Shown piece by piece: positions 12,855 to 53,840 of a stretch of DNA of 64,000 nt. The notes under the pieces are model-generated. The model searched no databases and was not told the origin of the DNA. It worked only from the letters and a program-made list of their open reading frames with translations. The stretch is taken from positions 5,657-69,656 of the forward strand of contig DASVWT010000308.1 in the NCBI GenBank assembly GCA_036393055.1. The letters run 5' to 3'. Positions within the stretch are counted from its first letter, which is position 1. Each line of letters begins with the position of its first letter. The position numbers and the translations under genes are program-made. This DNA comes from Steroidobacteraceae bacterium (GTDB taxonomy: Bacteria; Pseudomonadota; Gammaproteobacteria; Steroidobacterales; Steroidobacteraceae).

Positions 12855-12865
12855 TTCGGCGGTGA

Positions 12866-13741: not shown

Positions 13742-13743
13742 CT

Positions 13744-18852: not shown

Positions 18853-20051
18853 CGGCAGAGCTTCGCAAGCCCGTTCTCATCGTCGGCGCCGGTCCGGTTG
18901 GGCTGACTGCCGCATTGCGTCTGGCGCAGGCCGGAGTTGCGGTCGCGCTTTTCGAGGCCGAGCGTGCCGTCTCGACGGATCTGCGCGCCTCGACTTTTCA
19001 TCCGCCGACCCTCGACATGCTGGATACTCTCGGCGTGGCGGTGGAGCTCATCGCCCAGGGGCGGCTGACGCCCCGCTGGCAAGTCCGCCTGCACGAGACG
19101 GGCGAGCGCGCGGAGTTCGATCTCAGCATCCTGGCGGACGAGACACGCCACCCGTATCGCCTGCAGTGCGAGCAGCAGGTATTGCAGCGTCTGCTGCTCG
19201 ACCGGTTGGCTCAGTATCCCCATGCGCGCATCCGTTTCGACGCCGAAGTCGAGGCGGTGGGACAAGACGCCCGTGGAGTCTGGGTCGGCGTCAAAGGCGA
19301 GCGCACACAGGGCAGTTGGCTGATCGGCGCCGACGGCGCCCGCAGTATCGTACGCCGGACGTGCGGCATCGGTTTCGAGGGCGAGACCTATCCGGAGAGC
19401 ACGATCCTGGTCACCACGGATTTCGAGTTCGAGCGGTCGCTCCCGGGGCTCTCGCCCGTCAATTATATCTGGGCCGGCGCCGGAACCTTCAGCCTCCTGC
19501 GACTGCCCGATTTCTGGCGCTGCAGCCTCTACCCCCGCGAAGGGCAGACGCTCGAGAGCGCGATGGAGGATGATTCAATCGAGGCTCAACTCCAACATGT
19601 AGTCTCGCGTGCCGAGCGCTACAGGGTTCTGCACAAGAGGTGTTACCGCATCCACCGGCGTGTCGCCGACACGTATCGCCGGGGGCGCATGCTGTTGGCA
19701 GGCGATGCAGCGCATCTCAACAGCCCGAGCGGCGGCATGGGAATGAACGCCGGAATACATGACGCCTTCAGCCTCACGGACTGCCTCATTGGAGTCCTGG
19801 GAGATGCGGATGAACGGCTGCTCGACCGCTATGAGCGTCAGCGGCGCCCGATCGCCGTCGAGCACGTTCTGCAGCAATCCGACCGCAACCGGCGCCGCAT
19901 GCAGGAGACCGATCCGCAGCGCCGCCGCGAGCTGCTGCGCGACCTGCAACTCACGGCGGCGGATCCCGCACGGGCTCGCGAGTATCTGCTCGCGAGCTCC
20001 ATGATTGCCGGTCTGCGGCAGGCGGGCAGGATCGAGTCGGTGCAGACATGA
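18849..20051 (+). CDS. FAD-dependent aromatic-ring-type monooxygenase
   Basis: Within ORF 18327..20051; start ATG 18849 (ATGA overlap). VLIVGAGPVGLTAALRLAQAG, GADGARSIVRR, LAGDAAHLNSPSGGMGMN. Confidence 0.85.
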   Translation: MTAELRKPVLIVGAGPVGLTAALRLAQAGVAVALFEAERAVSTDLRASTFHPPTLDMLDTLGVAVELIAQGRLTPRWQVRLHETGERAEFDLSILADETRHPYRLQCEQQVLQRLLLDRLAQYPHARIRFDAEVEAVGQDARGVWVGVKGERTQGSWLIGADGARSIVRRTCGIGFEGETYPESTILVTTDFEFERSLPGLSPVNYIWAGAGTFSLLRLPDFWRCSLYPREGQTLESAMEDDSIEAQLQHVVSRAERYRVLHKRCYRIHRRVADTYRRGRMLLAGDAAHLNSPSGGMGMNAGIHDAFSLTDCLIGVLGDADERLLDRYERQRRPIAVEHVLQQSDRNRRRMQETDPQRRRELLRDLQLTAADPARAREYLLASSMIAGLRQAGRIESVQT

Positions 20052-21448: not shown

Positions 21449-22557
21449 CATTCTCGCTCGAGAGCCGGGCCACGCTGCAATTCGTGTTGACTCTGCGCCG
21501 CCGATGGGCGGATACGCTCTATCCGCGCTTGCGCGCGGAATGTGATGCCCTGGGCGGCCCGGAATCGCTCGCGCCCGATGGTTTCGCGGATCGCGTCCAC
21601 GGGCTGAGGAGCTATCCGGGCTTTGCGTGGCTGGAGCGCGGGTCGCAGAAGATGTTGTGGCGCGCGGCGATCGATGCGATCACGGGGGATGATGCCGGGG
21701 AAGCTCGTGCGGCGGAAAGTGGCACCGCGAAACGCGACGCGGCGGATCGAGCGGCAGGACGAAGATATCCGACAGGGCCCGCGTCGGGCTCGACGCTGGA
21801 GCTCGACCCGCAATTGCCGCTGCCGGATTGGTATACCGGCTGGGACATTCACTTGCAGCCGGGCGGTGTTTGGTCCGATGCAACCTCGGCCCGGGTATAC
21901 GAGCTCGGCGCGCGGCTGGTGATGCTGGGCGACAACGACGATTACAAGTTTCATCGCCTGTTCGTGGAGACCGCCGTTCCGCGACGCGATTACCGCCGGA
22001 TCGTCGATCTCGGCTGCGGCTTCGGCAAATCCACGTGGCCGCTGAAGAAAGCCTTCCCCGTTGCGGAAGTGATCGGCATCGATCTCTCCGCGCCATGCCT
22101 GGAGCTTGCGGTGCGGCGGACTGCGGCAAAAGGACTCGGCATTCGCTTCCGGCAAGCGAATGCAGCCGGAACCGGACTCGAGGCGGCGCGCGCCGATCTG
22201 GTCACCGCCACCATGCTCGCCCACGAATTGCCGCTCGATGCTCTGGCGGCGGTTCTCGCGGAGGCAGCGCGCCTTCTGGCGCCGGGCGGCCTGCTGCGGA
22301 TTCTGGATTTTCAGTACACCGGCGACCCCTTGCGCGATCTCGCGATGACCGAGCATGGCGCACGCAACAACGAGCCCTTCATGCCGCCGATGATGTCGGC
22401 CGATACGGTCGGTATGGCTGAGGCCGCGGGCCTGCGGGAGGTGCGCTGGACGGCCTTCGACGAGCGCGATGCGGGCAGACTGGAGCAGCTTGCGTGGCCG
22501 CAGCGCGCGGAATGGCACTTTCCGTGGGCGGTCCTCGAAGCGGAGAAGCCGGCGTGA
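21445..22557 (+). CDS. SAM-dependent methyltransferase-like protein with N-terminal extension (paralog 3 of 4)
   Basis: C-terminal part of ORF 20005..22557; start ATG 21445 (GGAG RBS, ATGA overlap with the MFS stop). RIVDLGCGFGKST, VIGIDLSA, ADLVTATMLAHEL, LAPGG, RNNEPFM. Confidence 0.8.
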   Translation: MTFSLESRATLQFVLTLRRRWADTLYPRLRAECDALGGPESLAPDGFADRVHGLRSYPGFAWLERGSQKMLWRAAIDAITGDDAGEARAAESGTAKRDAADRAAGRRYPTGPASGSTLELDPQLPLPDWYTGWDIHLQPGGVWSDATSARVYELGARLVMLGDNDDYKFHRLFVETAVPRRDYRRIVDLGCGFGKSTWPLKKAFPVAEVIGIDLSAPCLELAVRRTAAKGLGIRFRQANAAGTGLEAARADLVTATMLAHELPLDALAAVLAEAARLLAPGGLLRILDFQYTGDPLRDLAMTEHGARNNEPFMPPMMSADTVGMAEAAGLREVRWTAFDERDAGRLEQLAWPQRAEWHFPWAVLEAEKPA

Positions 22558-22883
22558 GCGCGCCCGCTGAATTCGGCGGCATCGACAACTCACATCTCGC
22601 GGCCCTCGTCTTCGAGCTGGCCTCACAATTGCACGTGGAGCGCGCGCGACGCCTCGCGCTCGAGGCAACGCTGACGCGTCTCGGCATTCTCGATGCCTCG
22701 CAGATCGAGGCTGCCGCTGACGGTCCCTCTTACCGGCAACAGACGGCCCTTCTGGCGGATGAGGCGATCCGCAGGCTCCTGGAAGTACTGTCCGAGTCGA
22801 GCGACGAGCGCAAGCCCCTGCGCGCCGAGGCGCCCGCAAGCGCCGCGCCGCCGGCCGCAGACGCCGAAAGCAAACATCCCTGA
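22554..22883 (+). CDS. small helical protein, partner family copy C (109 aa)
   Basis: ORF track 22494..22883, start set to GTG 22554 (GTGA overlap). Core LAALVFELASQLHVERARRLALEATLTRLGILDASQIE..ADEAIRRLLEVL. Confidence 0.65.
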   Translation: MSAPAEFGGIDNSHLAALVFELASQLHVERARRLALEATLTRLGILDASQIEAAADGPSYRQQTALLADEAIRRLLEVLSESSDERKPLRAEAPASAAPPAADAESKHP

Positions 22884-23723: not shown

Positions 23724-24398
23724 ATGACCCGACTCCCTTACTCTTGCCTCGTCTTCGCCCACCTGCTCCTCTTCGTCCTGTGGCTCGGGGGTGACGTCGG
23801 CGTCTACACACTCGGCCGCCACTTCCGTATGCGCGCCCGCTACAGCATCGAGCAGCGGCTCGCGCTGCTGAAGCTCCTCGTGGCAATCGACATGGTGCCG
23901 CGAACCGCCTGGGCCCTGATGGTTCCGGTGTCCCTCTCCGTCGTCGCGGCGGGCGGTTACTGGGCGGTACCGCGCTGGCTGCTGGCGCTGGCGTGGATCG
24001 CGGGGCTTCTCTGGACCTGGCTCGTCTGGGATGCGCACGCGCACGAGCGGACGCCACGGGCGGCACGCGAGCGGCGCGTCGAATTCTGGCTGAAGATCGT
24101 GCTGGCGCTCTTCTACCTCTGGCTGGGAAGCGCTTCGCTCGCAACCGGAGCGCCGCTGACAGCCGCGTGGCTGGCCGTGAAGGCGCTGGCGTTCGGCCTG
24201 ATCTTCGGTGCCGCCACGATGATCGATGTCGCCTACCGGCCGGTCGGCGCACAGCTCGGCCGTCTCCTGCGCGAGGGCTCGAGCGATGCCACCGAGCTGC
24301 CGCTGCTCGTGACCATGAACCGCACGCGCGCGTGGGTCTGGACGGTGTATCTGCTGCTGTTGGTGACCGCATTTCTCGGTGTCGCAAAACCCTTCTGA
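23724..24398 (+). CDS. integral membrane protein, unknown function (paralog A)
   Basis: 224 aa, about 5-6 hydrophobic helices. N-terminal LVFAHLLLFVLWLGGDVG; C-terminal LLVTAFLGVAKPF. Paralogous to the next gene. Confidence 0.7.
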   Translation: MTRLPYSCLVFAHLLLFVLWLGGDVGVYTLGRHFRMRARYSIEQRLALLKLLVAIDMVPRTAWALMVPVSLSVVAAGGYWAVPRWLLALAWIAGLLWTWLVWDAHAHERTPRAARERRVEFWLKIVLALFYLWLGSASLATGAPLTAAWLAVKALAFGLIFGAATMIDVAYRPVGAQLGRLLREGSSDATELPLLVTMNRTRAWVWTVYLLLLVTAFLGVAKPF

Positions 24399-24451
24399 TC
24401 CGCGGGCGCCATCCAACCGACCCACTCCTCCGCAGCACCCAAAGGTGAGCC

Positions 24452-25114
24452 ATGCTCCCGCAGGCACTGCTCGTCGCCCATATCGCCATCGTCGGCTACT
24501 GGCTCGGCTCGGAGCTGGTGATCAACAGCACCTATCGCCAGGTGTGCTTCGGCGCCCGGCTACCGTTCCCGGAGCGCAATCGGATGATGGAGCACGTCAT
24601 GGAGGCCGACCAGCACGTGCGTTATGCGCTGGCCCTGCAGGTCGCGACGGGTTTCGCTCTCGCGGCGCTGTACGGCTTCATTCCGGGCGGCGGTACCGCC
24701 GCCTGGATGGCCGCCCTATTCGGGGCACTCTGGCTCACGTTCATCGAGACCGTGCATCGCCTGCGCCACGCCCCCACGGGCCGCCGCCTCGGCGCGATCG
24801 ACCGCGGCTCCCGCTACCTGTTGATGGCCGTGCTGTTGTGCATCGGCGCCGGCCTGATCGGCCGCGGATGGGGCACCCCCGGCTGGCTGCGCCTGAAGCT
24901 GGCGCTCTTTGCCGGCGTAATGGCATGCGGCGTCGGCATCCGGATCGTGCTGCTGGCGCACTTCCGCGTTTGGAAGGCGATGGCGCAAGATGGTCCGACC
25001 GACCACGGCAACGCGCTCATCCGAAGCATCTACATCAAAGCGACGTCGATTCTGGGATTCCTCTGGGCGCTGATCGCCTGTATCGTCATCATCAGCGTCT
25101 CGAAGCCCATGTGA
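24452..25114 (+). CDS. integral membrane protein, unknown function (paralog B)
   Basis: 220 aa, AAAGGTGAG RBS. LLVAHIAIVGYWLGSELV, WLRLKLALFAGVMACG; C-terminal IVIISVSKPM. Confidence 0.7.
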   Translation: MLPQALLVAHIAIVGYWLGSELVINSTYRQVCFGARLPFPERNRMMEHVMEADQHVRYALALQVATGFALAALYGFIPGGGTAAWMAALFGALWLTFIETVHRLRHAPTGRRLGAIDRGSRYLLMAVLLCIGAGLIGRGWGTPGWLRLKLALFAGVMACGVGIRIVLLAHFRVWKAMAQDGPTDHGNALIRSIYIKATSILGFLWALIACIVIISVSKPM

Positions 25115-41023: not shown

Positions 41024-42396
41024 GACAGGAGCTCCCTCGGATCGGCGATCGCGCCGGCGATGGCGCTCGCCGCGACCGTCTCCGGGCTCGCAATGTGGGT
41101 ACGGATCCCTGGCCCCTGGCGTCCCTCGAAGTTGCGGTTGGTGGAGGAAATGACGCGCGACCCGGGCCGGAAGCTCTCCCCGCCGGCGTAGAAGCACATC
41201 GAGCAGCCGCTCTCGCGCCACTCGAAGCCGGCAGCCTGAAACACGCGATCGAGACCTTCGGCCTCCGCGGCGCGTTTCACTGCGGATGATCCGGGAACGC
41301 AGATGGCGGCCACGCCCGGCGCAACGTGCCGCCCTGCGAGAAGCGCGGCCGCGCGGCGCAGATCGGACAGCCGGCTGTTGGTGCAGCTACCGATGAATGC
41401 CGCATCGATCGGGATGCCGCGCAGCGCCTGCCCGGCGCGCAAGCCCATGTAGGCGAGAGGCCGCTGCGCGGCGGCCGGCGGTACGACGCCGGTCACCCCG
41501 GTCGACTGCGCCGGTGACACTCCCCAGCTCACCATCGGCTCCACCGCGGCGGCATCCAGGGTGATCTCCTCATCGAAGCGGGCGCCGGGATCGCTGGCGA
41601 GTCGCCGCCACTGCGCTACGGCCGCGCTCCAGGAGGCACCCTGCGGCGCGTACCGGCGGCCCTGCAGGTACGCAAAGGCAACATCGTCCGGCGCGATCAG
41701 CGCGGTCATCGCCGAGAATTCGCTGGCAAGATTGCACAGTGTCATGCGCGCTTCCATGTCGAGCGCCGCGACCGCCTCGCCGGCGAACTCGAGCGCACAC
41801 CCCTTGGCACCGCCCGCCCCGTAGCGGGCGATCAGAGCAAGTGCCAGATCCTTCGCGGTCACGCCCGCTGCGAGGCGCCCGGAGAGAATGACGCGCAGCG
41901 AGCGCGGGCGGCGCACACGCAGCGTGCCCGTAGCCAGCGCATGCTCCGCCTCCGAGGAGCCGATGCCCCAGGCCAGAGCGCCGAAGGCGCCCTGAGTGCA
42001 GGTATGGCTGTCCGGTGCGACCAGAGTACAGCCCGGCAACACGATGCCGAGCTCCGGTGAGATCACGTGCATGATCCCCTGATCCGGGTCGGTCACATCG
42101 TACAGCGTCAATCCCGCCTCCAACGCGGCGCGGCGGGTCTCGGAGATGAACGCCTGGCCGCCAGGCATGAGCGTGCGATCGCCCCGCCCGGGCCTGGTAT
42201 CGACGATGTGATCCATCACGCAGAAGGCGCGGCGCGGATCGGCCACGCGCCGCCCCGAGGCCGCCAGGCTGCCGAGCGCGACGGCACCCATGCGCTCGTG
42301 CAGGAAGATGCGGTCGATCGCGAGCAACGCGGCGCCGTCCGACAGTTCGGCGATGAGGTGCCGTCGCCAGATCTTCTCGAGGAGCGACTCGGTCAG
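41020..42396 (-). CDS. aconitase-family dehydratase large subunit (LeuC-like)
   Basis: ORF track 41020..42657 extends far into the upstream gene. The conserved N-terminus (LTESLLEKIWRRH..IDRIFLHE) begins at CTG 42396-42394, which has GGAG 8 nt upstream and overlaps the upstream stop (CTGA). APDSHTCTQGAFG, GSCTNSRLSDL, ESGCSMC. Confidence 0.75.
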   Translation of the reverse strand: MTESLLEKIWRRHLIAELSDGAALLAIDRIFLHERMGAVALGSLAASGRRVADPRRAFCVMDHIVDTRPGRGDRTLMPGGQAFISETRRAALEAGLTLYDVTDPDQGIMHVISPELGIVLPGCTLVAPDSHTCTQGAFGALAWGIGSSEAEHALATGTLRVRRPRSLRVILSGRLAAGVTAKDLALALIARYGAGGAKGCALEFAGEAVAALDMEARMTLCNLASEFSAMTALIAPDDVAFAYLQGRRYAPQGASWSAAVAQWRRLASDPGARFDEEITLDAAAVEPMVSWGVSPAQSTGVTGVVPPAAAQRPLAYMGLRAGQALRGIPIDAAFIGSCTNSRLSDLRRAAALLAGRHVAPGVAAICVPGSSAVKRAAEAEGLDRVFQAAGFEWRESGCSMCFYAGGESFRPGSRVISSTNRNFEGRQGPGIRTHIASPETVAASAIAGAIADPRELLS

Positions 42397-42887
42397 GCCC
42401 GCTGCTCCATTTCTTTCTCGACGGCGCGCCAGTCGCGTGTCACCAGGCGCTCCTCGATCGCGGTGCGTGTCTCGAGGCGTCCCTTGCGGATCCAATGCCA
42501 GGTGCGGCAGCGCGTGGCGCCGTCGTCCGCGATCTGGATCATCTCGTAGAGGTACAGCCCCGGATCGCCCTGCCGCTCCCAGTAGAGCATGATGGTGCGG
42601 CGCGCGGCGTCGAGGCCGACCTCGGCCGCCCAGCCCTTGATGAGCTCGTTGTCCCACCAGATGCGGCCGTCGGCGTAGGTGGCGGGGAAGTCCCGGATCT
42701 CCACGCGGCCGTCATCCCACGTGTAGTAGTTGGTCTGGTGATAGGGGTGCCCCTGCTCGGGCATCCGGCAGAGCAGCCGCGAGCGATGGGCGTCGATCTG
42801 CTTTCCCGCCGCATCGTAGTAGGTGTACACGCCGTCCCAGACTCCCTCGTGGCGTGCCAGCAGGGGCATGCTGTCGCGAATTCCCAT
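42393..42887 (-). CDS. hypothetical protein (164 aa), first gene of LeuCD-like operon
   Basis: MGIRDSMPLLARHEGVWDGVYTYYDAAGKQIDAHRSRLLCRMP..YHQTNYYTWDDGR..; GGGAG RBS. Trp/Tyr-rich, possibly a beta-barrel-type small protein; family not identified. Confidence 0.65.
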   Translation of the reverse strand: MGIRDSMPLLARHEGVWDGVYTYYDAAGKQIDAHRSRLLCRMPEQGHPYHQTNYYTWDDGRVEIRDFPATYADGRIWWDNELIKGWAAEVGLDAARRTIMLYWERQGDPGLYLYEMIQIADDGATRCRTWHWIRKGRLETRTAIEERLVTRDWRAVEKEMEQRA

Positions 42888-44419: not shown

Positions 44420-44782
44420 TCAGGATTTCGCCAGGTCCTCGCGGATGTCCTCGATCGGGCGCTCCTGCGCCGCCGCCGCGAGCGCCTCCGCCTCCTGCTG
44501 CAGGCCGCGCATGATCCTGGCGATGTACTCGCGGGTGAGATTGCCGCGCTCCAGCGCAGCCGCCTGATCCGGCGCATACGACTCGATGTCGGCGCGCGTC
44601 AGCGATCCCCGGGTCTCGAGCAGGCGCTCGACGGTGTCGAGCCGCTCGCGCAGCACGGATACCTCGCCGACCAGAGCCATCAGCATCGACAGCATGCGGT
44701 CGAGTGCCGGATCCTCGAAGTACTGCGGGCGGCGCCCCTTGGCCTTGGCGTTCGCGCGGACCATCCAGTCGATGTCGCTCAT
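44420..44782 (-). CDS. small helical protein, partner family copy D (120 aa)
   Basis: ORF track 44420..44827, start trimmed to ATG 44782, which overlaps the methyltransferase stop (ATGA). Core LSMLMALVGEVSVLRERLDTVERLLETRGSLTRADIESYAP..REYIARIMRGL. Confidence 0.65.
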   Translation of the reverse strand: MSDIDWMVRANAKAKGRRPQYFEDPALDRMLSMLMALVGEVSVLRERLDTVERLLETRGSLTRADIESYAPDQAAALERGNLTREYIARIMRGLQQEAEALAAAAQERPIEDIREDLAKS

Positions 44783-45993
44783 GAGGCGTTGGCCTCCCGC
44801 CCTTTCCATGCGCCATACGCGTGCCATGCGGCGGCACGGCCGTAATCTTCCGCGCCCTTATCCGGCGCCCCGGGGAAGATGCGCTTGTCCACGACGGCCG
44901 TGACTCCCGTGGTGAACAGCTCCTGCGGGCGGAAGCCGCTCTCGATCATGAGCTTCTTCAGATCCAACGAGTGCATCGCCGACCAGAAGGGCTCGTTGTT
45001 GTTGAAAGCGTCCCAATCCCGAATGAACTGCTCATAGAGCGGCATGTCGGCAGTGTACTGCGGCTGCTCCAGATGCAGCGTGAGGCCGCCCGGCGCGAGC
45101 ACGCGATACAGCTCGTTCAGGATGCGCGGCAGCGCCTTGGCGCTCAGCTCGTGCAGGAACATGGTGGTCTGGACCCAGTCGAAGTATCCCTCCGGCCAGC
45201 GCGAGAGGTCCTCGGCGTTGGCCTGCAGAAAGGTCAGATTGCGAACGCCCAGCGACCGCGCGCGCGCATGGCCGTAGCGCAGGATCGGCGCCGCAGTATC
45301 GAGTGCGATCACTTCGCTCTGCGGGAACGCCTGGGCGAGCGGCACGGCGTTGTGGCCGATCGTGCAGCCGACATCGAGAATCCTCTTGGGAGTCCACCCC
45401 GGGCGCTCGCGGCCGATCCAGGCCACGAGGGCCTGTCCACCGCCGTCCGACAGCGCGCCGAGCCCGCCGGCGGTGGTCGCGAACATTCCACAGTCGTAGT
45501 TGGCTCCGGCCGATACATCGCCCGCACGCTCCTCGCCCGCATAGCTGCCGGGCATGCAGTGGATGTCGACGGCCGCCTGGTAATGCGGCGTCGACACGGC
45601 AGGATCGAGCTTCAGCGTATCGGCCCCGTCGTTGAGGGCCCGCGCCCTGGCATCGAGGTCATCGAGCTGACGCAGGACCATGGCCCTGCCGTTCTGCTGC
45701 CGCATCTCCATGGAGTTGCGCTTGAGCGCGGACCAAAGGCGATGGAACGGGTCTGCATTCATCGCGCGGCGGATCTCGAAGCGATCGCGCGGTCCGCGCC
45801 CGTGCTCTTTCTCGAAGCCGGGCAGCACCCGCTGCCGGTACGCGGCGGCGTTGCCGCGCCCCAGCGGTCCCGACAGGTACTTGTTGAGGTTGGCGAGGAA
45901 GTTGAACCGTGCCGTTTCATCGTGGCGCGGAGTCGGAAACATGCCATGGCGCGCGACCGCGGTGTAGGGCGGCGGAATGTCTGCTTGTTTCAT
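44779..45993 (-). CDS. SAM-dependent methyltransferase-like protein with N-terminal extension (paralog 4 of 4)
   Basis: ORF track 44779..46449, start trimmed to ATG 45993 (MKQADIPPPY), just after the upstream TAA. RILDVGCTIGHNA, VIALDTAA, FDWVQTTMFLHEL, LAPGG, NNNEPFW. N-terminal HGRGPRDRFEIRRAM. Confidence 0.8.
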   Translation of the reverse strand: MKQADIPPPYTAVARHGMFPTPRHDETARFNFLANLNKYLSGPLGRGNAAAYRQRVLPGFEKEHGRGPRDRFEIRRAMNADPFHRLWSALKRNSMEMRQQNGRAMVLRQLDDLDARARALNDGADTLKLDPAVSTPHYQAAVDIHCMPGSYAGEERAGDVSAGANYDCGMFATTAGGLGALSDGGGQALVAWIGRERPGWTPKRILDVGCTIGHNAVPLAQAFPQSEVIALDTAAPILRYGHARARSLGVRNLTFLQANAEDLSRWPEGYFDWVQTTMFLHELSAKALPRILNELYRVLAPGGLTLHLEQPQYTADMPLYEQFIRDWDAFNNNEPFWSAMHSLDLKKLMIESGFRPQELFTTGVTAVVDKRIFPGAPDKGAEDYGRAAAWHAYGAWKGREANAS

Positions 45994-45995
45994 GA

Positions 45996-47555
45996 TTACA
46001 GCCCCAGGCTTCCGGGATTCATGAGATGGCTCGGGTCCACCGCCGCCTTCAGCGCCCGCAGGATTTCCCAGGCTTGCGGGTCGAGGGCCTCCCGCAGCGG
46101 ATAGGTGCGCCCGATCTGAAAGTGCGCCGCCCCGAGCGAATCGACGATCTGGATGATGGAGTCGCGTAGACGTGTAACCAACTCTCGTGACGCCTCGTTG
46201 GCTGGAAACCGGGTGAGCTTCGCAAGGTGCGCGGGCTCCACGGTGCGGCGATGCAGCTCCTCGAGAGCATCGGGCCAGTAGAATACGGGCTCGACGACGC
46301 AGGCCGACGGACTGATGGCGGCGAACAGGGCGCCTGCACTCACGCCGTGGCGCTCCATTTCTCCGGCCTCGCGCGCAAAGAGGTCTTGGATCCGCCGCCA
46401 GCCTTCCGCCAGCCGGCCGTGCGGCAACAGGCCGTGCACGGGCAGCCATCGCTCGCCCGCGGGGCCGATCATGGAGTTCAGCGGCGGGAAGGGGTGCGCT
46501 CTGGCCACTTTCGGGATGGTGTTCTCGACCGGGGCTCCGCCTGCCTCGGTGACGAGACGATCGACGGCGGCGAGATCCGCGGCAACGGCGCTCTCATGCC
46601 TGCCCTCGCAGACGACATGAAGCGAGAACGATCCGGCTTCCAGGAACGAGCGCCCCGCGGCAACCACCTTGACCCCTTCTTTCAAGCCCTTCCAGGCGGA
46701 TCCCTGTGCCTTGACGACTGCCAGCAGGGAGCGCGCGTCGGCGGCAATGCTCTCGCGCTTCAACCGCTGCGACTGCAGGTAGGGATCGAAGCCGAAGCAT
46801 TCCGCAGCGAGGCGCTCGCGCGCCACGGCGCTCATGGCGGCAAAGAATCCTTCGGCCGTCGGAAGAGTATACGAGCCGTAAGCGAAGGCCTCCGCCTCGC
46901 GCACCAGTTGCAGCGTCACCGTCGCTTTGATGCCTAGTGCGCCGGTATCGGACGCGAACAACCCCGTGATGTCCGGACCGAAGGGACGGAAGAAGCCGCA
47001 CCCCGTGCTCAACACCCGGCCGTTCGCCAACACGACCTCGAAGCTCAGCGCGCCGTCGACGAGCACACCGTCGCGGGCGCCCCAGAACACGCCGTTCTGA
47101 CTCATCCCGCCGCCGATGGTCGCCTTCAATCCCGAGAGAGTCCCCCAGGCGAGCGCGCGCAGACGGTGCGGCTCGAGCGCGCGGCGCAGATCGGCCCAGG
47201 TGCAGCCCGCCTCCACTCTGGCGGTGAGGTTGACCGGGTCGACATCGAGCACGCGATTCATCGCACTCATGTCGATCAGGAGCGCACCGGGCGAGGAAGC
47301 CAGATAGCCGCCGGTATAGCTGGCGCCACCGCCGCGAGGAATCACCGCGATCCCGCGCGCGGTCGCTGCGGCCACGCCGCGCGCGAGCATCTGGGTGTCG
47401 GTCGGCCGGAAGACTGCCAGGAGCGGCGCGCCCTTCTGGAAGACATCGTGCTCGAAGTAGGCGAGCTCGGCCGCCTCTCTCGAGAGGGCGGTTTCACCCA
47501 CCGCCTGCGCGACCGTGGCAAGGCTGTCGTCGCGGACCATGCTGACGCCGCTCAT
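45996..47555 (-). CDS. FAD-linked oxidase (PCMH/GlcD-like FAD-binding domain)
   Basis: ORF track 45996..47966, start trimmed to ATG 47555 (ATGA overlap with the MFS stop). VIPRGGGASYTGG, then GCTWADL, then a C-terminal oxidase domain. 519 aa. Confidence 0.8.
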   Translation of the reverse strand: MSGVSMVRDDSLATVAQAVGETALSREAAELAYFEHDVFQKGAPLLAVFRPTDTQMLARGVAAATARGIAVIPRGGGASYTGGYLASSPGALLIDMSAMNRVLDVDPVNLTARVEAGCTWADLRRALEPHRLRALAWGTLSGLKATIGGGMSQNGVFWGARDGVLVDGALSFEVVLANGRVLSTGCGFFRPFGPDITGLFASDTGALGIKATVTLQLVREAEAFAYGSYTLPTAEGFFAAMSAVARERLAAECFGFDPYLQSQRLKRESIAADARSLLAVVKAQGSAWKGLKEGVKVVAAGRSFLEAGSFSLHVVCEGRHESAVAADLAAVDRLVTEAGGAPVENTIPKVARAHPFPPLNSMIGPAGERWLPVHGLLPHGRLAEGWRRIQDLFAREAGEMERHGVSAGALFAAISPSACVVEPVFYWPDALEELHRRTVEPAHLAKLTRFPANEASRELVTRLRDSIIQIVDSLGAAHFQIGRTYPLREALDPQAWEILRALKAAVDPSHLMNPGSLGL

Positions 47556-48829
47556 TCCGGCAGCGGTGCCGGCGTCGGCCGCAGGGACTGCATCGGCTCG
47601 CGCTCGAAGGCCGGATAACGCCCGAGCAGCAGCAGTGCGACACCGGTGATCGCGAACAGCAGCAACGCGATCATCAGGATCTCGTCGTAGCGGCCGGTCC
47701 GATCGCGCACCACTCCATAGGCCACCGGCGACAAGGACGCGCCGATCCCGAAAGCCAGATAGAGCAGTCCATAGATGCGCCCATAATGCGCCATTCCGAA
47801 GTACTTGGCGGCGAAGTAGGCGATGACGTCCGACTCCGCTCCGGCCGAGAAGGCGATCAGGAACACGCCCACGACGACCCGCGTCACGCTGGGCGTGGTG
47901 CCGGTCAGCAGCCAGCACCCGAGTCCCGAGAGCAGCAGCGCCGGACAGGCGACCGCCGGCGCCCACACTCGATCGAAGAGGTAGCCGATGAAGAGACGGG
48001 AGGCCAGGATCCCCGTGGCGATGATCCCGAGAGCGCTGGCGGCGAACCGCGGCGTGAATCCGTGCAGCTCCACGATCTCTGCGATGTGGATGTGCGCACC
48101 CGCATACGCGAAGGCGATCAGAAAAACCGCGGCGAGCAGCAGCCAGAAGCGGTAGCCGCGCAATGCCTGTGCGAGCGTGATGCCCGCAACCTGGCCGTGC
48201 TCATCGCAGATGCCGGCGGGCCGCTCCTGCGGCTTCGGATCGCGAAACCACGCGAAGCAGATCGGCAGGGCGAGCAGGAGCGGTAGCAGGGCGACCACCG
48301 GGAAGGCCAGCCGCCAGCCGCCCCAACCGATCGCCGATTGCGCCAGCTGCGGCACCACGAACGCCGCCGCGCTGGTGCCGAGGAGCATGATCGCGAGCGC
48401 CAGGCCGCGGCGGCGAAAGAACCAGATGCTGATGGCCCTGCTGAAGGTGACCGGCGTGGAGCCGATGCCCACGATGCCGAGCAGCGCCCAGAGCGCCCAG
48501 TATCCACCGACCGACCGGGGGGTGAAATAGAGGGACGCGAACACCACGGTGAACGCGACCAGTGAGGCCAGCGCCACCACACGGACGCCGAAGCGGTCCG
48601 CGAGGCCCCCGAACACCGGCGCGAGCAACGAGGCGATGATCCCGAAGATCATCATGCCGGCACTGATGTCGGCGAAGTCCCAGCCCAGCTTGGCATGGAT
48701 CGGGCCCATGACGAGCGGCAGGACGTTGAAGGGAACCGGCGAGGCGCCGCAGGCCACCCCGACGACGGCTGCCGTCAGCGGCTTCCACCCGAGGGCGAAC
48801 TCCCCCCTGCGCGCAGCCTGCGCGCTCAA
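47552..48829 (-). CDS. MFS transporter (paralog of 28512-29795)
   Basis: ORF track 47552..48925 begins at a TTG inside the operator. The start is reassigned to TTG 48829, which overlaps the leader-uORF stop (TTGA). ..GWKPLTAAVVGVACGASPVPFNVLPLVMGP.. Confidence 0.8.
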   Translation of the reverse strand: MSAQAARRGEFALGWKPLTAAVVGVACGASPVPFNVLPLVMGPIHAKLGWDFADISAGMMIFGIIASLLAPVFGGLADRFGVRVVALASLVAFTVVFASLYFTPRSVGGYWALWALLGIVGIGSTPVTFSRAISIWFFRRRGLALAIMLLGTSAAAFVVPQLAQSAIGWGGWRLAFPVVALLPLLLALPICFAWFRDPKPQERPAGICDEHGQVAGITLAQALRGYRFWLLLAAVFLIAFAYAGAHIHIAEIVELHGFTPRFAASALGIIATGILASRLFIGYLFDRVWAPAVACPALLLSGLGCWLLTGTTPSVTRVVVGVFLIAFSAGAESDVIAYFAAKYFGMAHYGRIYGLLYLAFGIGASLSPVAYGVVRDRTGRYDEILMIALLLFAITGVALLLLGRYPAFEREPMQSLRPTPAPLPE

Positions 48830-48858
48830 GGCCGCCACCCGTCTGCCGGTCGATGCAT
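48826..48858 (-). CDS. leader uORF (MHRPADGWRP, 10 codons)
   Basis: GAGGA (48869-48865), 6 nt, then ATG 48858. Reads ATGCATCGACCGGCAGACGGGTGGCGGCCTTGA. Its TGA overlaps the TTG of the MFS gene by 4 nt. Confidence 0.45.
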   Translation of the reverse strand: MHRPADGWRP

Positions 48859-48913
48859 CGTCGTTCCTCGTCTCTTGCGGCGCGGCGACTGAATTGGCGC
48901 CTTCGCGGTCTAT

Positions 48914-48953
48914 ATGTCCGGACAACTCTCGGCCGAATCCGCACGACTGTCAA
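48914..48953 (-). promoter_or_regulatory. sigma70-like promoter with palindromic operator at the start site (MFS/oxidase/methyltransferase operon)
   Basis: Minus strand: TTGACA (48953-48948), 17 nt, GAGAGT (48930-48925), then TTGTCCGGACAT (48925-48914). Same layout as 29871-29910. Confidence 0.5.
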
Positions 48954-48993
48954 GCCCCGCGGTCACGGCGATGGACGCGTCGCGGATTGCCGC

Positions 48994-49009
48994 TATAATG
49001 TCCGGACAA
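48994..49009 (+). promoter_or_regulatory. consensus -10 TATAAT fused to palindromic operator (CitE-like operon)
   Basis: TATAATGTCCGGACAA: TATAAT at 48994-48999, operator ATGTCCGGACAA at 48998-49009. Lies 21 nt before ATG 49030 (GAGGA RBS in between). Confidence 0.55.
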
Positions 49010-49029: not shown

Positions 49030-49854
49030 ATGAGTGTTGTGGACGGGCTGGCGAGCCTGCTGTTCGTGCCCGGCAGCCGGCCGGACCGCTTCGGCAAGGC
49101 GCTTTCGAGCGGCGCCGATGCCGTATGCATCGACCTGGAGGATGGGGTTGCCGATGCCGCCAAGGCGGAGGCGCGGGCCGCCGCCCTGGAGGCGCTCGCG
49201 GACCGCCCGCCGCGCGTCTGTCTGCGCATCAACGGGCTACGCACCCGCACCGGACTGCAGGATCTGGTGGAGCTGGCCTCCCGCGGCCACCGGCCCGAGC
49301 TGCTGTTGGTTCCCAAGGTCGAGAGCGCCGTCGATGTCGAGATCGTGTCGGCGGTGTCCGGCCTGTCGTGCATCGTGCCGCTGATCGAGACGCCGCGCGG
49401 CCTGGCCGCCGCGGCCGAGATCGCCGCCGCTCCGGCGGTCGCCGCCATGATGTTCGGCGGCGGCGATTTCGCGGCGGAGCTCGGCGTGCGGGTCGAGTGG
49501 GAGCCGCTGCGCACGGCCCGGGGCCTGTTCATACTGGCGTGCGCGCAGGCCGGAAAGCTGGCGATCGACGTCCCGTACCTGGCGCTCGAGGACCCCGCCG
49601 GCCTCGCGGCCGAAGCCAAGGCAGCCAAGGCCATCGGCTTCGGCGCCAAAGCTGCGATTCATCCGGCGCAGGTCGCGCCCATCCACGCCGTGCTCCGCCC
49701 GACCGAAGCCGAAATCGCCGAAGCCGAGGAGGCGCAGCGCGCCTTCGAGGCCGCCGGCGGCGGCGCGATCCGCTTCAAGGGGCGCCTGCTCGATGAGCCG
49801 ATCATGCGCCGCTACCGAAGAATTCTCGCACAGCAGAGGAATCAACATGCGTGA
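49030..49854 (+). CDS. HpcH/CitE-like acyl-CoA lyase (citrate lyase beta / citramalyl- or malyl-CoA lyase family)
   Basis: ORF track 48853..49854, start trimmed to ATG 49030. LLFVPGSRPDRFGKALSSGADAVCIDLEDGV, LLLVPKVES, PLIETPRG, FGGGDFAAELG. Confidence 0.85.
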   Translation: MSVVDGLASLLFVPGSRPDRFGKALSSGADAVCIDLEDGVADAAKAEARAAALEALADRPPRVCLRINGLRTRTGLQDLVELASRGHRPELLLVPKVESAVDVEIVSAVSGLSCIVPLIETPRGLAAAAEIAAAPAVAAMMFGGGDFAAELGVRVEWEPLRTARGLFILACAQAGKLAIDVPYLALEDPAGLAAEAKAAKAIGFGAKAAIHPAQVAPIHAVLRPTEAEIAEAEEAQRAFEAAGGGAIRFKGRLLDEPIMRRYRRILAQQRNQHA

Positions 49855-50356
49855 AGGCAGCATCGAAGTCGGTCCGCGGCGTTTTCGCGAGACGTTTGGC
49901 CGTTATTACGAAGACTTCGTGGCGGGTGACGTTTACGAGCATCGTCCGGGACGCACGATCACGGACGCTGACAATGTGTGGTTTACCCTGCTCACCATGA
50001 ACACTCACCCGGCCCATTTCGACTACGAGTTCGCGAAGAAGACCGAGTTCGGCAAGCCCATCGTCTGCTCGCCGCTCACCGTCGCCTTGATGGTGGGCAT
50101 GTCCGTTTCGGACGTGAGTCAGAAAGCCGTCGCGAATCTCGGCTGGGAGTCGATCAAGCTCACCCAGCCGCTCTTTCCGGGCGACACCCTCTACGCCGAG
50201 AGCGAGGTGCTCGAGAAGCGGGAATCCCGCTCTCGCCCCGAGCAGGGCCTGGTGACCGTGAAGACCACGGGAAAGAACCAGCACGGCGAGATCGTATGCA
50301 CGTTCAACCGGACGATGCTGATCTGGAAGCGGGGCTTCGGCCCTGCAGACGGCTGA
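49847..50356 (+). CDS. MaoC-like (hot-dog fold) enoyl-CoA hydratase/dehydratase
   Basis: ORF track 49793..50356, start trimmed to ATG 49847 (AGAGGA RBS). FVAGDVYEHRPGRTITDADNVWFTLLTMNTHPAHFD, GDTLYAESEVLEKRES. Confidence 0.8.
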   Translation: MREGSIEVGPRRFRETFGRYYEDFVAGDVYEHRPGRTITDADNVWFTLLTMNTHPAHFDYEFAKKTEFGKPIVCSPLTVALMVGMSVSDVSQKAVANLGWESIKLTQPLFPGDTLYAESEVLEKRESRSRPEQGLVTVKTTGKNQHGEIVCTFNRTMLIWKRGFGPADG

Positions 50357-50368
50357 TCAGAACGACCC

Positions 50369-51547
50369 ATGGATACACAAACCAAGCCGCGGACGCGGAC
50401 CATCGATCCGGACGACGAGCGCGCCCTGCTCGATGCAATCGACCGCTGGCTCGAGCGCGACGTCGCGCCGGTCGTCATGCGCCACGATCACGGCGATATC
50501 TGGCCGGCGGAGCTGGTGGCGCAAATGGCCGACATGGGTTTGTTCGGAGCGACCATCTCCCGCGAGTACGGTGGACTCGGACTTCCGGCGACCACCTATG
50601 CCACGCTCATCGCGCGCATGTCATCGATATGGATGGCGCTCACCGGGATCCTCAACTCTCACCTCATCATGGCCGCTGCCGTGGAGCGTTTCGGCACCGA
50701 GGCGCAGAGGTCGCAATGGTTGCCGCGCTTTGCCAGCGGGGAGCTGCGCGGGGGCCTCGCGCTGACGGAGCCGGATGCGGGCACCGACCTGCAGGCCATC
50801 CGTACGACGGCAACCCTCGCTGGCGACGAGTACGTCATCAACGGCACGAAGACCTGGATCTCCAACGGCATCCAGGGACACTGCTTCGCGTTGCTGGTCA
50901 AGACCGATCCGGCCACCGATCCGCCGCGCAAAGGCATGAGCTTCTTCATCGCTCCCAAGGGGCCCGGCTTCAGCGTCGGCAGGAAGATCGAGAAGCTCGG
51001 CTACAAGGGCATCGACAGCGCGGAGCTGATCTTCGATCAGTACCGCGTTCCCGCAGCGAACCTGATCGGCGGCGTCGAGGGCCAGGGTTTCTACCAGGCG
51101 ACCGGCGGCCTCGAGCTCGGCCGGATCAACGTGGCAGCGCGCGGCGTCGGCCTCGCCGACGGCTCGCTGCGGCTCGCAACCGCCTATGCCCAGGTCCGCA
51201 AGACCATGGGCAAGCCCATCGCCCAGCATCAGGCCATCCAGCTCAAGCTCGGCGAAATGGTGACCCGCGCCCGCGCCGCGCGCCTGCTGACACTCGATGC
51301 GGCGGAAGCCTACGACCGCGGCGAGCGGTGCGACCTGGAGGCGGGAGCGGCGAAGTACTTCGCCTCCGAGGCGGCGGTCCGCAATTCCGAGGAGGCCATG
51401 CGTATCTTCGGCGGCTACAGCTACTCGAAGGAATTCGAGATCGAGCGCTTCTATCGCGATGCGCTCCTCATGTGCATCGGCGAGGGCACCAACGAGATCC
51501 AGCGGATGATCATCGCCCGGCAATGGCTCAAGAGAAATCCCGTCTGA
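50369..51547 (+). CDS. acyl-CoA dehydrogenase
   Basis: 392 aa. EYGGLGL, LTEPDAGTDL, GTKTWISNG, GGYSYSKEFEIERFYRDA, IGEGTNEIQRMIIAR. Confidence 0.9.
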   Translation: MDTQTKPRTRTIDPDDERALLDAIDRWLERDVAPVVMRHDHGDIWPAELVAQMADMGLFGATISREYGGLGLPATTYATLIARMSSIWMALTGILNSHLIMAAAVERFGTEAQRSQWLPRFASGELRGGLALTEPDAGTDLQAIRTTATLAGDEYVINGTKTWISNGIQGHCFALLVKTDPATDPPRKGMSFFIAPKGPGFSVGRKIEKLGYKGIDSAELIFDQYRVPAANLIGGVEGQGFYQATGGLELGRINVAARGVGLADGSLRLATAYAQVRKTMGKPIAQHQAIQLKLGEMVTRARAARLLTLDAAEAYDRGERCDLEAGAAKYFASEAAVRNSEEAMRIFGGYSYSKEFEIERFYRDALLMCIGEGTNEIQRMIIARQWLKRNPV

Positions 51548-52749
51548 TGGCTCACCCCCCTGTCCGGCTGCCGCTCGCCGGCGTGCGCATTCTCTCCGCC
51601 GAGCAATACGGCGCCGCTCCGTATGGCACGATGCTGCTCGCCCAGCTCGGCGCGGATGTGATCAAGATCGAGCCCCCGGCGGGCGGCGACAGTGCGCGCG
51701 CAGTGGGCCCGCATTATCTGAGCGGCGGCGACAGTCTGTTCTTCCAGACATTCAACCTCAACAAAAGATCGTTGACGCTGGACCTGACATCCGACGGTGG
51801 CCGCGCCGTGCTCAAGCGTCTCGCCCGGGATGCGCATGCGATCGTCAACAACCTGCGCGGCGATCTTCCGGGACGGCTCGGGCTGACCTACGAGGCACTG
51901 GCGGACGACAACCCCGCGATCGTATGCGCGCACCTCTCCGCCTACGGGCGCGACAACCCGCGGGCGCGCTGGCCGGGTTACGACTACCTGATGCAGGCGG
52001 AGGCGGGCTTCATGAGCCTCACCGGCGAGCCCGACGGCCCGCCCGCCCGCTTCGGCCTCTCCATGGTGGATTTCATGACCGGCGCCATGATGGCGGTCGG
52101 CTTGCTGGCGGCGCTGACCGAGGCCCGCAGCACCGGCAAGGGGCGCGACGTCGATGTCGACCTGCTGGCCACCGCCTTCCACCAGACCAGTTATCCGGCG
52201 ATCTGGTACCTCAATGAGGGAGACATCACGCGGCGGGTGGCGCGCTCCGCGCACCCCTCCGTCGTGCCGAGCCAGCTGTTCCGCACGGCCGACGGCTGGG
52301 TGTTCGTGATGGCGCAACTGCCGAAGTTCTGGACCGTGCTCCTGCAGCGCATCTCGCGCCCGGAGCTCGCCCAGGACGATCGCTTCCGCACGCCCGCGGA
52401 TCGGCTCGCCAATCGCGGAGCGCTCACGGCGGTGCTGGATGGTATATTCCAACAGAACCCCACGAGTTACTGGGTCGAGCAGCTCGGCGGTTACGTCCCG
52501 GTCGCTCCGGTGCATACGCTCGATCAGGCGCTCGACAGCGCGTTTCTGCAGGCATCCGGAATGATCGAGCCGATCCGTCATCCGGATGGGCGCGAGCTGC
52601 GCGTGTTGAGCAACCCGATTCGTCTCGACGGGCGCTGGCTCGCCAATCGCGCGGCGCCGCGCCTGGGGGAGCATAGCGCGGCGATACTCGCCGAAGCCGG
52701 CCTCGATGCCGCGGCGATCGACATGCTGCGCGAGAAGGGCGTGGTGTAG
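51547..52749 (+). CDS. family III (CaiB/BaiF) CoA-transferase
   Basis: C-terminal part of ORF 49978..52749; start ATG 51547 (TGATG overlap). LAGVRILSAEQYGAAPYGTMLLAQLGADVIKIEPPAGGD; C-terminal ..GEHSAAILAEAGLDAAAIDMLREKGVV. Confidence 0.9.
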   Translation: MAHPPVRLPLAGVRILSAEQYGAAPYGTMLLAQLGADVIKIEPPAGGDSARAVGPHYLSGGDSLFFQTFNLNKRSLTLDLTSDGGRAVLKRLARDAHAIVNNLRGDLPGRLGLTYEALADDNPAIVCAHLSAYGRDNPRARWPGYDYLMQAEAGFMSLTGEPDGPPARFGLSMVDFMTGAMMAVGLLAALTEARSTGKGRDVDVDLLATAFHQTSYPAIWYLNEGDITRRVARSAHPSVVPSQLFRTADGWVFVMAQLPKFWTVLLQRISRPELAQDDRFRTPADRLANRGALTAVLDGIFQQNPTSYWVEQLGGYVPVAPVHTLDQALDSAFLQASGMIEPIRHPDGRELRVLSNPIRLDGRWLANRAAPRLGEHSAAILAEAGLDAAAIDMLREKGVV

Positions 52750-52751
52750 CG

Positions 52752-53840
52752 ATGCACTTGCGTGGCATCCAGGTAATCGACGCGACCCTGTTCCTGCCCG
52801 GACCGATGCTGACGGTCATGATGGCCGACCAGGGCGCGGAAGTCGTCAAGGTGGAGCCGCCCGCGGGCGATCCGGTCCGCAGCCAAGGGCCCTTCGAGGC
52901 GGGTCAGTCGATCTGGTTCCGCAGCCTCAACCGTGGCAAGCGCAGCGTGACGCTGGACCTGAAGGCCGAGGAGGGGCGCTCTGCCCTCTGGAGCCTGCTT
53001 GCCGATGCCGATGTTTTCGTGGAGGGATTCCGGCCGGGCGCAATGGCGCGGCTGGGGTTCGGTTACGAGAGTGTCGCTGCGCGCTGCCCGCGCCTCATTT
53101 ACTGCTCGATCTCGGCCTTCGGACAACACGGGCCGCTCGCAAGCCACCCGGCGCACGATCTGGCGGTGCAGGCGCTCACCGGATTCCTCTCCGTGAACGA
53201 CGGCGCCGATGGAACGCCGGTCGTCCCGGGTGCCCCGGCAGCCGACATGGCCGCGGGACTGACGGCGCTCTCAGGCGTCCTGATGGCGCTCCTCGGCCGG
53301 GAGCGGACGGGCAGAGGAGACTACCTCGACGTGGCGATGCTCGATTCGCTGTTGCCCTGGTGCGCACATGTCGTCGGCGAGGCGATCGCCGGCGGATCGC
53401 CGCCACGGTCGTCAGCGCAACGGTCCCTCGGGGGCGCAGCTTTCTATCAGGTCTACCGCACCGCGGATGGCAAGCACGTCGTGCTCGCCGGCAGAGAAGC
53501 CAAGTTCGCCGCCGAACTGCTCGGCGCGCTCGGGCGGCCGGACCTCCTCCCCCTCGCCAGTGCGCCGGCGGGAGAGGCGCAGCGGCCCCTCACGGAGTTC
53601 CTGCGGACAACATTCGTGCAACGCACCCGCGATGAATGGACTGCCTGGTTCGCCGGCAGGAATGTCGCCTTCGCGCCGGTGCTCGATTTCCGCGAGGCGC
53701 TGGCTCAACCGCACATTGCGCAGCGGCGGTTGCTCGTCGAATCGGGAGGAGCGCACCACATCGCGCCCCCGTTGCGGTTCGCCTCCGCCCCCGACTGGTC
53801 GCCGCGGCAGGCGCCAGAGCTGGCGAAACCCGGGACTTGA
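52752..53840 (+). CDS. family III (CaiB/BaiF) CoA-transferase
   Basis: 362 aa. LRGIQVIDATLFLPGPMLTVMMADQGAEVVKVEPPAGDP. Lies 2 nt after the preceding CoA-transferase gene. Confidence 0.9.
   Translation: MHLRGIQVIDATLFLPGPMLTVMMADQGAEVVKVEPPAGDPVRSQGPFEAGQSIWFRSLNRGKRSVTLDLKAEEGRSALWSLLADADVFVEGFRPGAMARLGFGYESVAARCPRLIYCSISAFGQHGPLASHPAHDLAVQALTGFLSVNDGADGTPVVPGAPAADMAAGLTALSGVLMALLGRERTGRGDYLDVAMLDSLLPWCAHVVGEAIAGGSPPRSSAQRSLGGAAFYQVYRTADGKHVVLAGREAKFAAELLGALGRPDLLPLASAPAGEAQRPLTEFLRTTFVQRTRDEWTAWFAGRNVAFAPVLDFREALAQPHIAQRRLLVESGGAHHIAPPLRFASAPDWSPRQAPELAKPGT

Follow-up and report, generated by a model that had tools for sequence, protein, structure and literature searches.

Trm112 is a small non-catalytic subunit that activates the methyltransferases Trm9, Trm11, Mtq2 and Bud23, and Rv2258c, RedM, SibL and NPUN_R0239 are small-molecule O-methyltransferases that have an N-terminal helical domain for dimerisation or as a cap. 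In this study, we analysed a 64,000-nucleotide stretch of the genome of a Steroidobacteraceae bacterium (contig DASVWT010000308.1, positions 5,657 to 69,656 of the forward strand; this whole stretch is termed the window), with emphasis on the two genes that end one of its operons and encode a class I S-adenosylmethionine (SAM)-dependent methyltransferase (MT, gene g41) and a small partner protein (PT, gene g40). MT/PT is a real, well-conserved and uncharacterised two-gene module; nothing specific was found in the literature on either the gene cluster or the pair. Two groups of described enzymes invite comparison. CysG and BelI, of cystargolide and belactosin biosynthesis, methylate a carboxyl oxygen of 3-isopropylmalate or 3-alkylmalates, an esterase later removing the methyl ester, and have a Ca2+-binding metal motif of His-His after strand 4 and a downstream Asp (PMC11408123). 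Tam, Tmt1 and TmtA are class I methyltransferases that esterify trans-aconitate, 3-isopropylmalate and itaconate and are linked to itaconate turnover (PMC6320622).

MT shares with CysG/BelI a class I fold of the Methyltransf_11/25 type, and its LHEL sequence (H281, E282) aligns with the IHHL of BelI, that is, with the His-His of their His-His-Asp motif; D344 of MT is invariant and is a candidate for the equivalent of Asp191 in that motif. In addition, the alkylmalate substrate of these enzymes is the product of a LeuCD-type enzyme, and the MT/PT pair is syntenic with LeuCD-like and alpha/beta hydrolase genes. The differences are that CysG and BelI are biosynthetic single-subunit enzymes of ~215–230 aa with neither the ~200-aa N-terminal region of MT nor a PT-like partner, that the similarity is generic (E 1.6e-6 over the core), and that the second His is a Glu in MT. 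Tam/Tmt1/TmtA act on aconitase-family substrates or inhibitors and the window has an itaconate-type cluster (g44–g48) beside the operon, whereas Tam has no partner protein or N-terminal domain and its model NF010703 gives MT 21.9 bits against a cut-off of 320. Trm112 is comparable in concept only, as a small dedicated partner for the stability or activity of a class I methyltransferase, a role that PT might share. It is a zinc-knuckle/beta protein serving RNA or protein methyltransferases of eukaryotes and archaea, whereas PT is predicted to be an all-helical hairpin and belongs to bacterial catabolic operons, and no homology between the two was detected with Pfam or Foldseek. Rv2258c, RedM, SibL and NPUN_R0239, in which a helical N-domain precedes the Rossmann domain, were the best full-length Foldseek matches to MT, but with TM-scores of 0.41–0.44, root-mean-square deviations of 15–20 Å and identities of 12–20%, and they have no partner gene; MT gave no Pfam match to Methyltransf_2 above the cut-off.

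The operon and its terminal pair

The operon comprises four genes, given here with their window positions; MFS stands for major facilitator superfamily, FAD for flavin adenine dinucleotide, ORF for open reading frame and GC3 for the GC fraction at third codon positions.

47552–48829, minus strand: MFS transporter (g43), ORF 47552–48925 with a probable TTG start at 48829; MFS_1 114.9 bits (Pfam)
45996–47555, minus strand: FAD-linked oxidase, GlcD-like, 519 aa; FAD_binding_4 96.7 bits and FAD-oxidase_C (Pfam)
44779–45993, minus strand: MT (g41), class I SAM-dependent methyltransferase, 404 aa; Methyltransf_25 68.7 bits
44420–44782, minus strand: PT (g40), small partner protein, 120 aa; ORF with GC3 of 0.87, no Pfam match

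These genes are packed end to end without intergenic space. The MFS stop and oxidase start overlap as ATGA at 47552–47555, the MT ATG at 45993 lies two bases on from the oxidase stop TAA (45996–45998), and the MT stop and PT start overlap as ATGA at 44779–44782. The order and coordinates of this four-gene minus-strand operon, as proposed in the initial annotation, were borne out by the ORFs and Pfam matches, as were its two ATGA overlaps by the sequence. Scans of the operon's minus strand found no internal promoter-like site above shuffle expectation, and internal terminator-like sites were not in excess of it. The transporter resembles oxalate/formate antiporters or lactate transporters, an SfMCT-like NCBIfam model giving 121.7 bits, below its cut-off, and the CTTGAG at its TTG start is kept in the closest relative, L005, a metagenome-assembled genome of the Steroidobacteraceae with ~90% protein identity.

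Inheritance of MT and PT as a pair

PT orthologues were found in 407 species genomes, and 80 loci were kept, mostly from Sphingomonadales, the others including Steroidobacteraceae, Hydrogenophaga, Marinomonas and Caulobacteraceae. A copy-number census of 86 loci and the window, in which MT was counted by a hidden Markov model (HMM) of its family-specific N-domain, revealed that MT and PT counts are equal nearly everywhere (1:1, 2:2, 3:3 or 4:4). Orthologous operons without the pair, which had been named in advance as a finding that would speak against a portable module, were not what the comparison of relatives showed. The PT start lies no more than 250 bp downstream of the MT stop in 92 of 103 cases, and at least 43 loci have retained the ATGA overlap. 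For the primary pair, this evidence is partly circular because the loci were chosen through PT; the 11 secondary pairs in sphingomonad loci are independent of that choice, and each of their MT genes has its own PT. In a sample of seven distant PT representatives, an MT lies immediately upstream in four cases and at a distance of one gene in a fifth; another representative adjoins an MT remnant, and the last is on a contig too short to tell. MT and PT subfamilies map 1:1, and the distance matrices of the two proteins correlate with a mirror-tree r of 0.93 (permutation maximum 0.27); the pairs therefore duplicate and diverge as units.

Searches by tblastn and HMM identified four MT genes (g09, g15, g20 and g41) and four PT genes (g12, g16, the ORF 22554–22883 and g40) in the window, which adds three pairs to that of the operon:

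16546–17727 and 17724–18047, plus strand: MT g15 and PT g16, GTGA overlap; tblastn E 3e-60 (MT) and E 5e-5 (PT), HMM census
21445–22557 and 22554–22883, plus strand: MT g20 and a PT ORF with a GTG start, GTGA overlap; tblastn/HMM
13744–14043 and 10754–11941, minus strand: PT g12 and MT g09, split pair; tblastn/HMM

The initial annotation had counted three pairs, having missed or merged the g20 pair. The g15/g16 pair sits after the hydantoinase/allantoinase-like g14, a layout identical in the relative L085, and the g20 pair is placed after the MFS gene g19 and before the ChrR-type cupin g21; at the position of the g20 partner, L085 has a called gene of 107 aa with 4-bp overlaps. The third pair, g09/g12, is the paralogue type closest to g41/g40. 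It had been described as a coupled pair of a VOC context and proved to be divided by two VOC-like genes: g12 heads a unit with the VOC-like g11 (4-bp overlap), and g09 is 1.8 kb away, beyond the VOC-like g10. The Glyoxalase match of g11 is weak (E 0.002, below the cut-off). On the Novosphingobium plasmid pSA1, MT and PT of the g09 type are adjacent, in PT-then-MT order, so that the split in the window is most simply explained by insertion into a real pair. Of the earlier claim that the pair occurs in three enzyme contexts (hydantoinase/monooxygenase, MFS/oxidase and VOC), the variety of contexts stands, with a fourth pair to be added and the VOC pair to be regarded as split.

These data also bear on the idea that PT functions independently of MT, for example as a regulatory protein of small size, a chaperone or a partner for VOC-type enzymes, and is co-transcribed with MT only as a component of the same pathways. 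In the window (g12–g11) and in loci L073 and L094, PT does stand at the head of a separate unit that includes a VOC-like gene, some pairs lie 1–3.7 kb apart, and fusions of the two proteins were absent from the best 150 of 1,513 PT-family clusters. However, MT and PT match 1:1 in copy number and their subfamilies cluster together even among deep paralogues, the two genes stay adjacent in unrelated contexts that have no VOC gene, and PT has no DNA-binding or other recognisable domain, which together make such independence quite improbable.

Sequence and fold of MT

MT matches Methyltransf_25 (68.7 bits, cut-off 27, residues 205–303) and Methyltransf_11 (57.1 bits, cut-off 21.2), and its Pfam methyltransferase match is confined to residues ~200–320, the N-terminal helical region of ~200 aa being family-specific. 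An AlphaFold2 model with a predicted local distance difference test score (pLDDT) of 88 has five helices at 24–121, a linker region and a Rossmann core at 200–365, with strands at 204–208, 227–232, 253–257, 271–277, 299–309, 359–365 and 389–396 that alternate with helices in a Rossmann-like alpha/beta arrangement. Foldseek searches with this model reached a probability of 1.0 for many class I methyltransferases, all of them generic matches with a TM-score on the query of 0.44 or less, and the nearest structures were mostly small-molecule methyltransferases (RebM, Coq5, CouO/NovO and PMT). Sequence and fold searches of the PDB likewise yielded generic core matches only; the sequence matches include rickettsial protein lysine methyltransferases, and BelI is the third-best.

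Attempts to name MT from curated models were rejected, as UbiE, MenG, BioC, Tam, CpaM and TehB all scored far below the NCBIfam cut-offs. Among the UbiE/MenG/COQ5 models, TIGR01934 gave 41.2 bits against a cut-off of 158 and the PRK00216 models gave 33–40 bits against cut-offs of 216–378, and the label 'UbiE' attached to MT homologues in their source records is generic. An origin from a defence system or phage was also rejected, the PADLOC resemblance being limited to the generic methyltransferase core.

The acidic residue after strand 2 of the class I fold binds ribose, and MT has an invariant residue, D232, at this site. Residues that are invariant across the MT paralogues also include D207, G209, G213, H281, E282, N332, E334, D344, H145, P148 and G149, and the Q-A-N/D motif on the adenine side and the H-E after strand 4 are invariant or nearly so. 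With its invariant D232, G209/G213 and H281-E282 and a confidently modelled Rossmann fold, MT looks catalytically competent. Motif I is less regular: three of the four MT paralogues in the window have Thr or Ser for its central Gly, and the canonical GCGFG occurs in g20 only. This replacement would suit an MT that does not methylate, either a SAM- or ligand-binding pseudo-enzyme or an isomerase or decarboxylase on the methyltransferase fold, so that the pair would be a sensor or a non-methylating catalyst for the transported compound. Such an MT would also accord with the difficulty of placing a methyl-transfer step in these catabolic clusters, with the simplest operon (L005) having no annotated isomerase, and with the loss of the Rossmann core in one relative. 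Nevertheless, we regard it as very unlikely given that D232, the adenine-side motif and the H-E after strand 4 are invariant or close to it, that the g20 paralogue has the canonical motif, and that MT is 75% identical to its sphingomonad orthologues, an identity between Gamma- and Alphaproteobacteria that is typical of a strongly constrained enzyme.

The partner protein

PT belongs to a large family without annotation. Its 925 homologues of ~120 aa are every one labelled 'hypothetical', a profile search collected 1,513 clusters at 50% identity (627 at E <= 1e-10), and the source names of ten family representatives were empty. None of the four window paralogues belongs to a family in Pfam, NCBIfam, PADLOC or PHROGs, and against the PDB the best sequence match had E 0.47 and the best Foldseek match E 6, without a fold match. 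A search with the g16 subfamily returned only 15 close matches. The AlphaFold2 model of PT (pLDDT 78) is a helical hairpin with helices at 25–57 and 73–106, and R45, R47 and E52 are invariant across all four window paralogues. The proteins in the best 150 of the 1,513 clusters are stand-alone and small (76–240 aa).

On a single metagenomic contig (L090, 3483–4970), a 216-aa MT-like protein is encoded directly upstream of a 240-aa PT homologue and consists of the MT N-terminal helices and C-terminal NxEP segment only, without the Rossmann core. This remnant and the conservation of PT are relevant to another explanation, namely that MT acts on PT as its protein substrate, or has in PT a carrier or scaffold, methylating it at a conserved residue such as R45, R47 or E52, and that the modified hairpin is the functional product. 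A small conserved protein encoded beside a dedicated methyltransferase, with three invariant candidate residues, would fit this explanation, as would the rickettsial protein lysine methyltransferases among the PDB matches of MT; pairs of precursor and methyltransferase are also known in systems for ribosomally synthesised and post-translationally modified peptides. Yet conservation of PT extends along the entire hairpin rather than following a pattern of leader and variable core, the setting is one of catabolic operons with transporters and hydrolases and no peptide-maturation genes nearby, the nearest MT structures are mostly of small-molecule enzymes, and an MT remnant without the SAM domain is still paired with PT. 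We consequently consider a substrate role for PT to be quite unlikely.

Proposed function of the module

The reading that we prefer, with a confidence somewhat short of even, is that the pair is a two-gene enzyme module, i.e., a two-subunit small-molecule methyltransferase that occurs in different catabolic operons and methylates a small imported acid or amide. A stoichiometric two-subunit enzyme is favoured over mere co-transcription because copy numbers are matched, the genes are co-duplicated and their adjacency is kept despite changes in gene order. In such an enzyme, MT would be the catalytic class I SAM-dependent subunit with its own N-terminal helical cap, and PT would be a dedicated helical-hairpin partner of ~100–130 aa, made in matching amounts, usually by way of the stop/start overlap. 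We infer a physical complex in which PT binds MT outside its Rossmann core, at the N-terminal helices and C-terminal segment, and thereby completes or stabilises the substrate site or the oligomer. Contact of PT with the helical cap and C-terminal segment is suggested by the Rossmann-less MT remnant of the one contig L090, since it is still paired with PT. As one unit, the module is passed on, duplicated and placed in one catabolic operon or another; in the window, it forms the end of an operon begun by an MFS transporter of carboxylate type. Most probably, the reaction would methylate a small acid or amide intermediate after its import, and our preferred guess is a transient methyl-esterification of a carboxyl group in a branched or unsaturated di- or tricarboxylate. 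The methylated product would feed the accompanying LeuCD-like hydratase, HMG-CoA-lyase-like and CoA-transferase steps, and an esterase would later strip the methyl group. This guess draws on the precedents of CysG/BelI and Tam/Tmt1/TmtA, on the alignment of LHEL with the BelI motif, and on the LeuCD-like and esterase-type genes found with the pair.

Several points weigh against this two-subunit methyltransferase. The mirror-tree correlation is to some degree expected for any adjacent genes with a common history. In some loci, a regulator or one to three genes come between MT and PT, so co-translation of the two is not essential. A fusion of MT and PT of the Rosetta stone kind was not seen among the best 150 PT-family clusters, whose size range of 76–240 aa means that they include no MT-sized member. 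Motif I is GCTIG, with Thr for the central Gly, in the orthologue group of g41, where GxGxG would be expected, and the similarity of MT to CysG/BelI, Tam and UbiE is only that of methyltransferases in general. Finally, steps that consume SAM are unusual and costly in catabolism, and a single substrate class is doubtful because the contexts of the pair are so varied (nitroreductases, hydantoinases, cupins and VOC proteins).

A more far-reaching proposal is unlikely to hold in full. In it, PT would be the obligate helical-hairpin subunit for a clade of bacterial small-molecule methyltransferases, and the heteromer would add transient methyl (ester) groups in a catabolic setting, in the manner of BioC/BioH or CysG/CysE, as cyclic amides or imides and branched unsaturated dicarboxylates are degraded, and exchange of the module between operons and plasmids would widen the substrate range. 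If MT and PT are a true heteromer, they would be a bacterial small-molecule addition to the few methyltransferases that need a dedicated non-catalytic partner, and a family of ~1,500 unannotated clusters would gain a function. A SAM-consuming step in catabolic operons would in turn represent unusual chemistry, a protecting-group or detoxifying methylation of aconitase-family substrates. The module would also help to decode a large catabolic island that recurs in soil and freshwater Steroidobacteraceae and Sphingomonadales, and the proteins annotated as 'class I SAM-dependent methyltransferases' may prove inactive or insoluble when expressed alone.

Gene context of the pair

The genes upstream of g41-type MT vary considerably between loci, in which a nitrilase-type (CN) hydrolase is an extra member of most sphingomonad versions:

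31 loci: MFS, oxidase, CN hydrolase
3 loci: MFS, CN hydrolase
2 loci: MFS, oxidase, as in the window
5 loci: MFS alone, including L005
13 loci: none of these

The MFS-oxidase-MT-PT layout of the window is thus common to only 2 of ~57 informative loci. Between MFS and MT, the oxidase is absent in L005 and in four Erythrobacter-type loci, and the L005 operon runs MFS-MT-PT, a g38 remnant, and then LeuCD-HMGL-CoA transferase. As judged from gene content, it is the pair that forms the constant core, with the FAD oxidase an optional, variable member. The view of the initial annotation that the pair is accessory to the oxidase has therefore to be reversed, whereas its description of the pair as a portable unit agrees with the constant pair and changing neighbours that we observed.

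Among the contexts are IclR-TonB-dependent receptor-FMN reductase-VOC-alpha/beta hydrolase-MT-PT-membrane protein, nitroreductase-MT-PT-nitroreductase, MT-PT-tannase-type esterase, MT-Aldedh-PT-VOC-MFS and, on plasmid pJE1, MT-PT-FAD oxidoreductases-hydantoinase A/B. Overall, the neighbours comprise MFS/oxidase, hydantoinase-like, cupin, VOC, nitroreductase, tannase-type esterase and oxoprolinase-family genes, and in L047 and L091 the gene immediately next to the pair is of esterase type. Pairs of the g41/g40 type are most persistently accompanied by genes for a LeuCD-like hydratase, an HMG-CoA-lyase-like protein, a family III CoA-transferase, g38, PuuE-like hydrolases and alpha/beta hydrolases; genes of the LeuCD-like, HMGL-like, family III CoA-transferase and alpha/beta hydrolase kinds are syntenic with the pair in most loci. 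The g38 gene (158 aa, window 42393–42869, weak DUF3598_N match) occurs together with the LeuCD-like genes in the majority of related loci surveyed and is reduced to a truncated remnant in L005.

Divergent from the operon, the window encodes at 49039–53840 a CitE-like lyase, a MaoC/mesaconyl-CoA hydratase, an acyl-CoA dehydrogenase and two family III CoA-transferases. This gene set, the itaconate-type cluster g44–g48 that adjoins the operon, resembles pseudomonad clusters for itaconate and methylsuccinate degradation (compare PMC12290011). A pathway of the island from a cyclic imide or hydroxypyridine through an alkylmaleate to citramalyl-CoA can be conjectured from the domain content and is not claimed here.

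MT homologues with ~54% identity occur on sphingomonad plasmids, some of them conjugative, namely NZ_CP017076.1 (pSA1), NZ_KM017071.1 (pJE1) and six others, and pSA1 (1.76 Mb) has six places with an MT match. Judged by these matches, the occurrence on plasmids is consistent with horizontal mobility of the MT/PT module.

Operator-like palindromes and the leader region

The initial annotation had placed an operator in the promoter of the operon, and two operator-like palindromes are indeed present between the MFS gene and the divergent g44:

48914–48925: TGTCCGGACA palindrome, just downstream of the TTGACA −35-like hexamer (48948–48953) of the MFS operon
48998–49009: a second such palindrome, which overlaps the TATAAT of the promoter-like site of the divergent g44

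Both palindromes are kept in L005, as is the TTGACA hexamer upstream of the palindrome on the MFS side, and a promoter scan identified the g44 promoter-like site as TGGACG-16-TATAAT at 48972–48999 on the plus strand. The motif is enriched: with one mismatch or none, TTGTCCGGACA has 14 matches in the window against 0.75 expected, a number reached in 0 of 100 shuffles, and these matches represent 8 sites, 6 of which scored on both strands. The palindromes lie at 8332, 28187, 29871, 36395, 42939, 48914, 48998 and 54789, and those mapped against the gene calls are intergenic or just upstream of genes; the MT/PT pairs at 10–23 kb are without an exact TGTCCGGACA copy. Three GntR+UTRA regulators are encoded in the window, g05, g13 and g49, the last recognised by sequence similarity. 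Palindromes of the GT-N-AC type in promoter regions with GntR/UTRA regulators nearby are the features of a GntR/HutC-type regulon, and the site distribution suggests one GntR/UTRA regulon across the island that would include the MFS genes g27 and g43, the g44–g48 cluster and others. A GntR/UTRA regulator acting at the TGTCCGGACA palindromes probably keeps the MFS-headed operon repressed.

A leader upstream ORF (uORF) had also been proposed for the operon, and it can be read from the sequence:

48826–48858, minus strand: 10-codon uORF MHRPADGWRP, its stop overlapping the MFS TTG start

The ORF is therefore present, but its conservation is weak: L005 keeps the ATG and its ORF ends earlier (7 codons), which lends a leader uORF little support, and a conserved leader peptide was rejected on this partial conservation. 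A 62-aa ORF upstream of the MFS gene in sphingomonads was likewise rejected as a leader peptide for its lack of conservation. In L001, this 62-aa gene call (1726–1914) lies between a TonB-dependent receptor and the MFS gene without a conserved counterpart in other loci; the call is probably spurious and does not represent a leader peptide.

Other genes near the pairs

The genes g17 (Asp/Glu-racemase-like) and g18 (FAD monooxygenase), at 18136–20051, are absent from the otherwise collinear L085 (10324–10520) and appear by this comparison to be an insertion between PT g16 and the MFS gene g19. PT is directly upstream of VOC/glyoxalase-like genes in the window (12009–14043) and in two unrelated loci, L073 (8917–10269) and L094 (3151–4097), an adjacency that may point to a second functional link of PT, apart from that to MT. 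Lastly, unannotated proteins of 220–226 aa are encoded right after or near MT-PT in many loci (window 23724–25114, L003 7386–8066, L047 9391–10071 and L088 2120–2794). Those of the window, g22 and g23, are predicted membrane proteins with 5–6 hydrophobic segments, and the L047 homologue has a weak DUF2269 match; from their recurrent position, the 220–226-aa proteins may be part of the MT/PT system.

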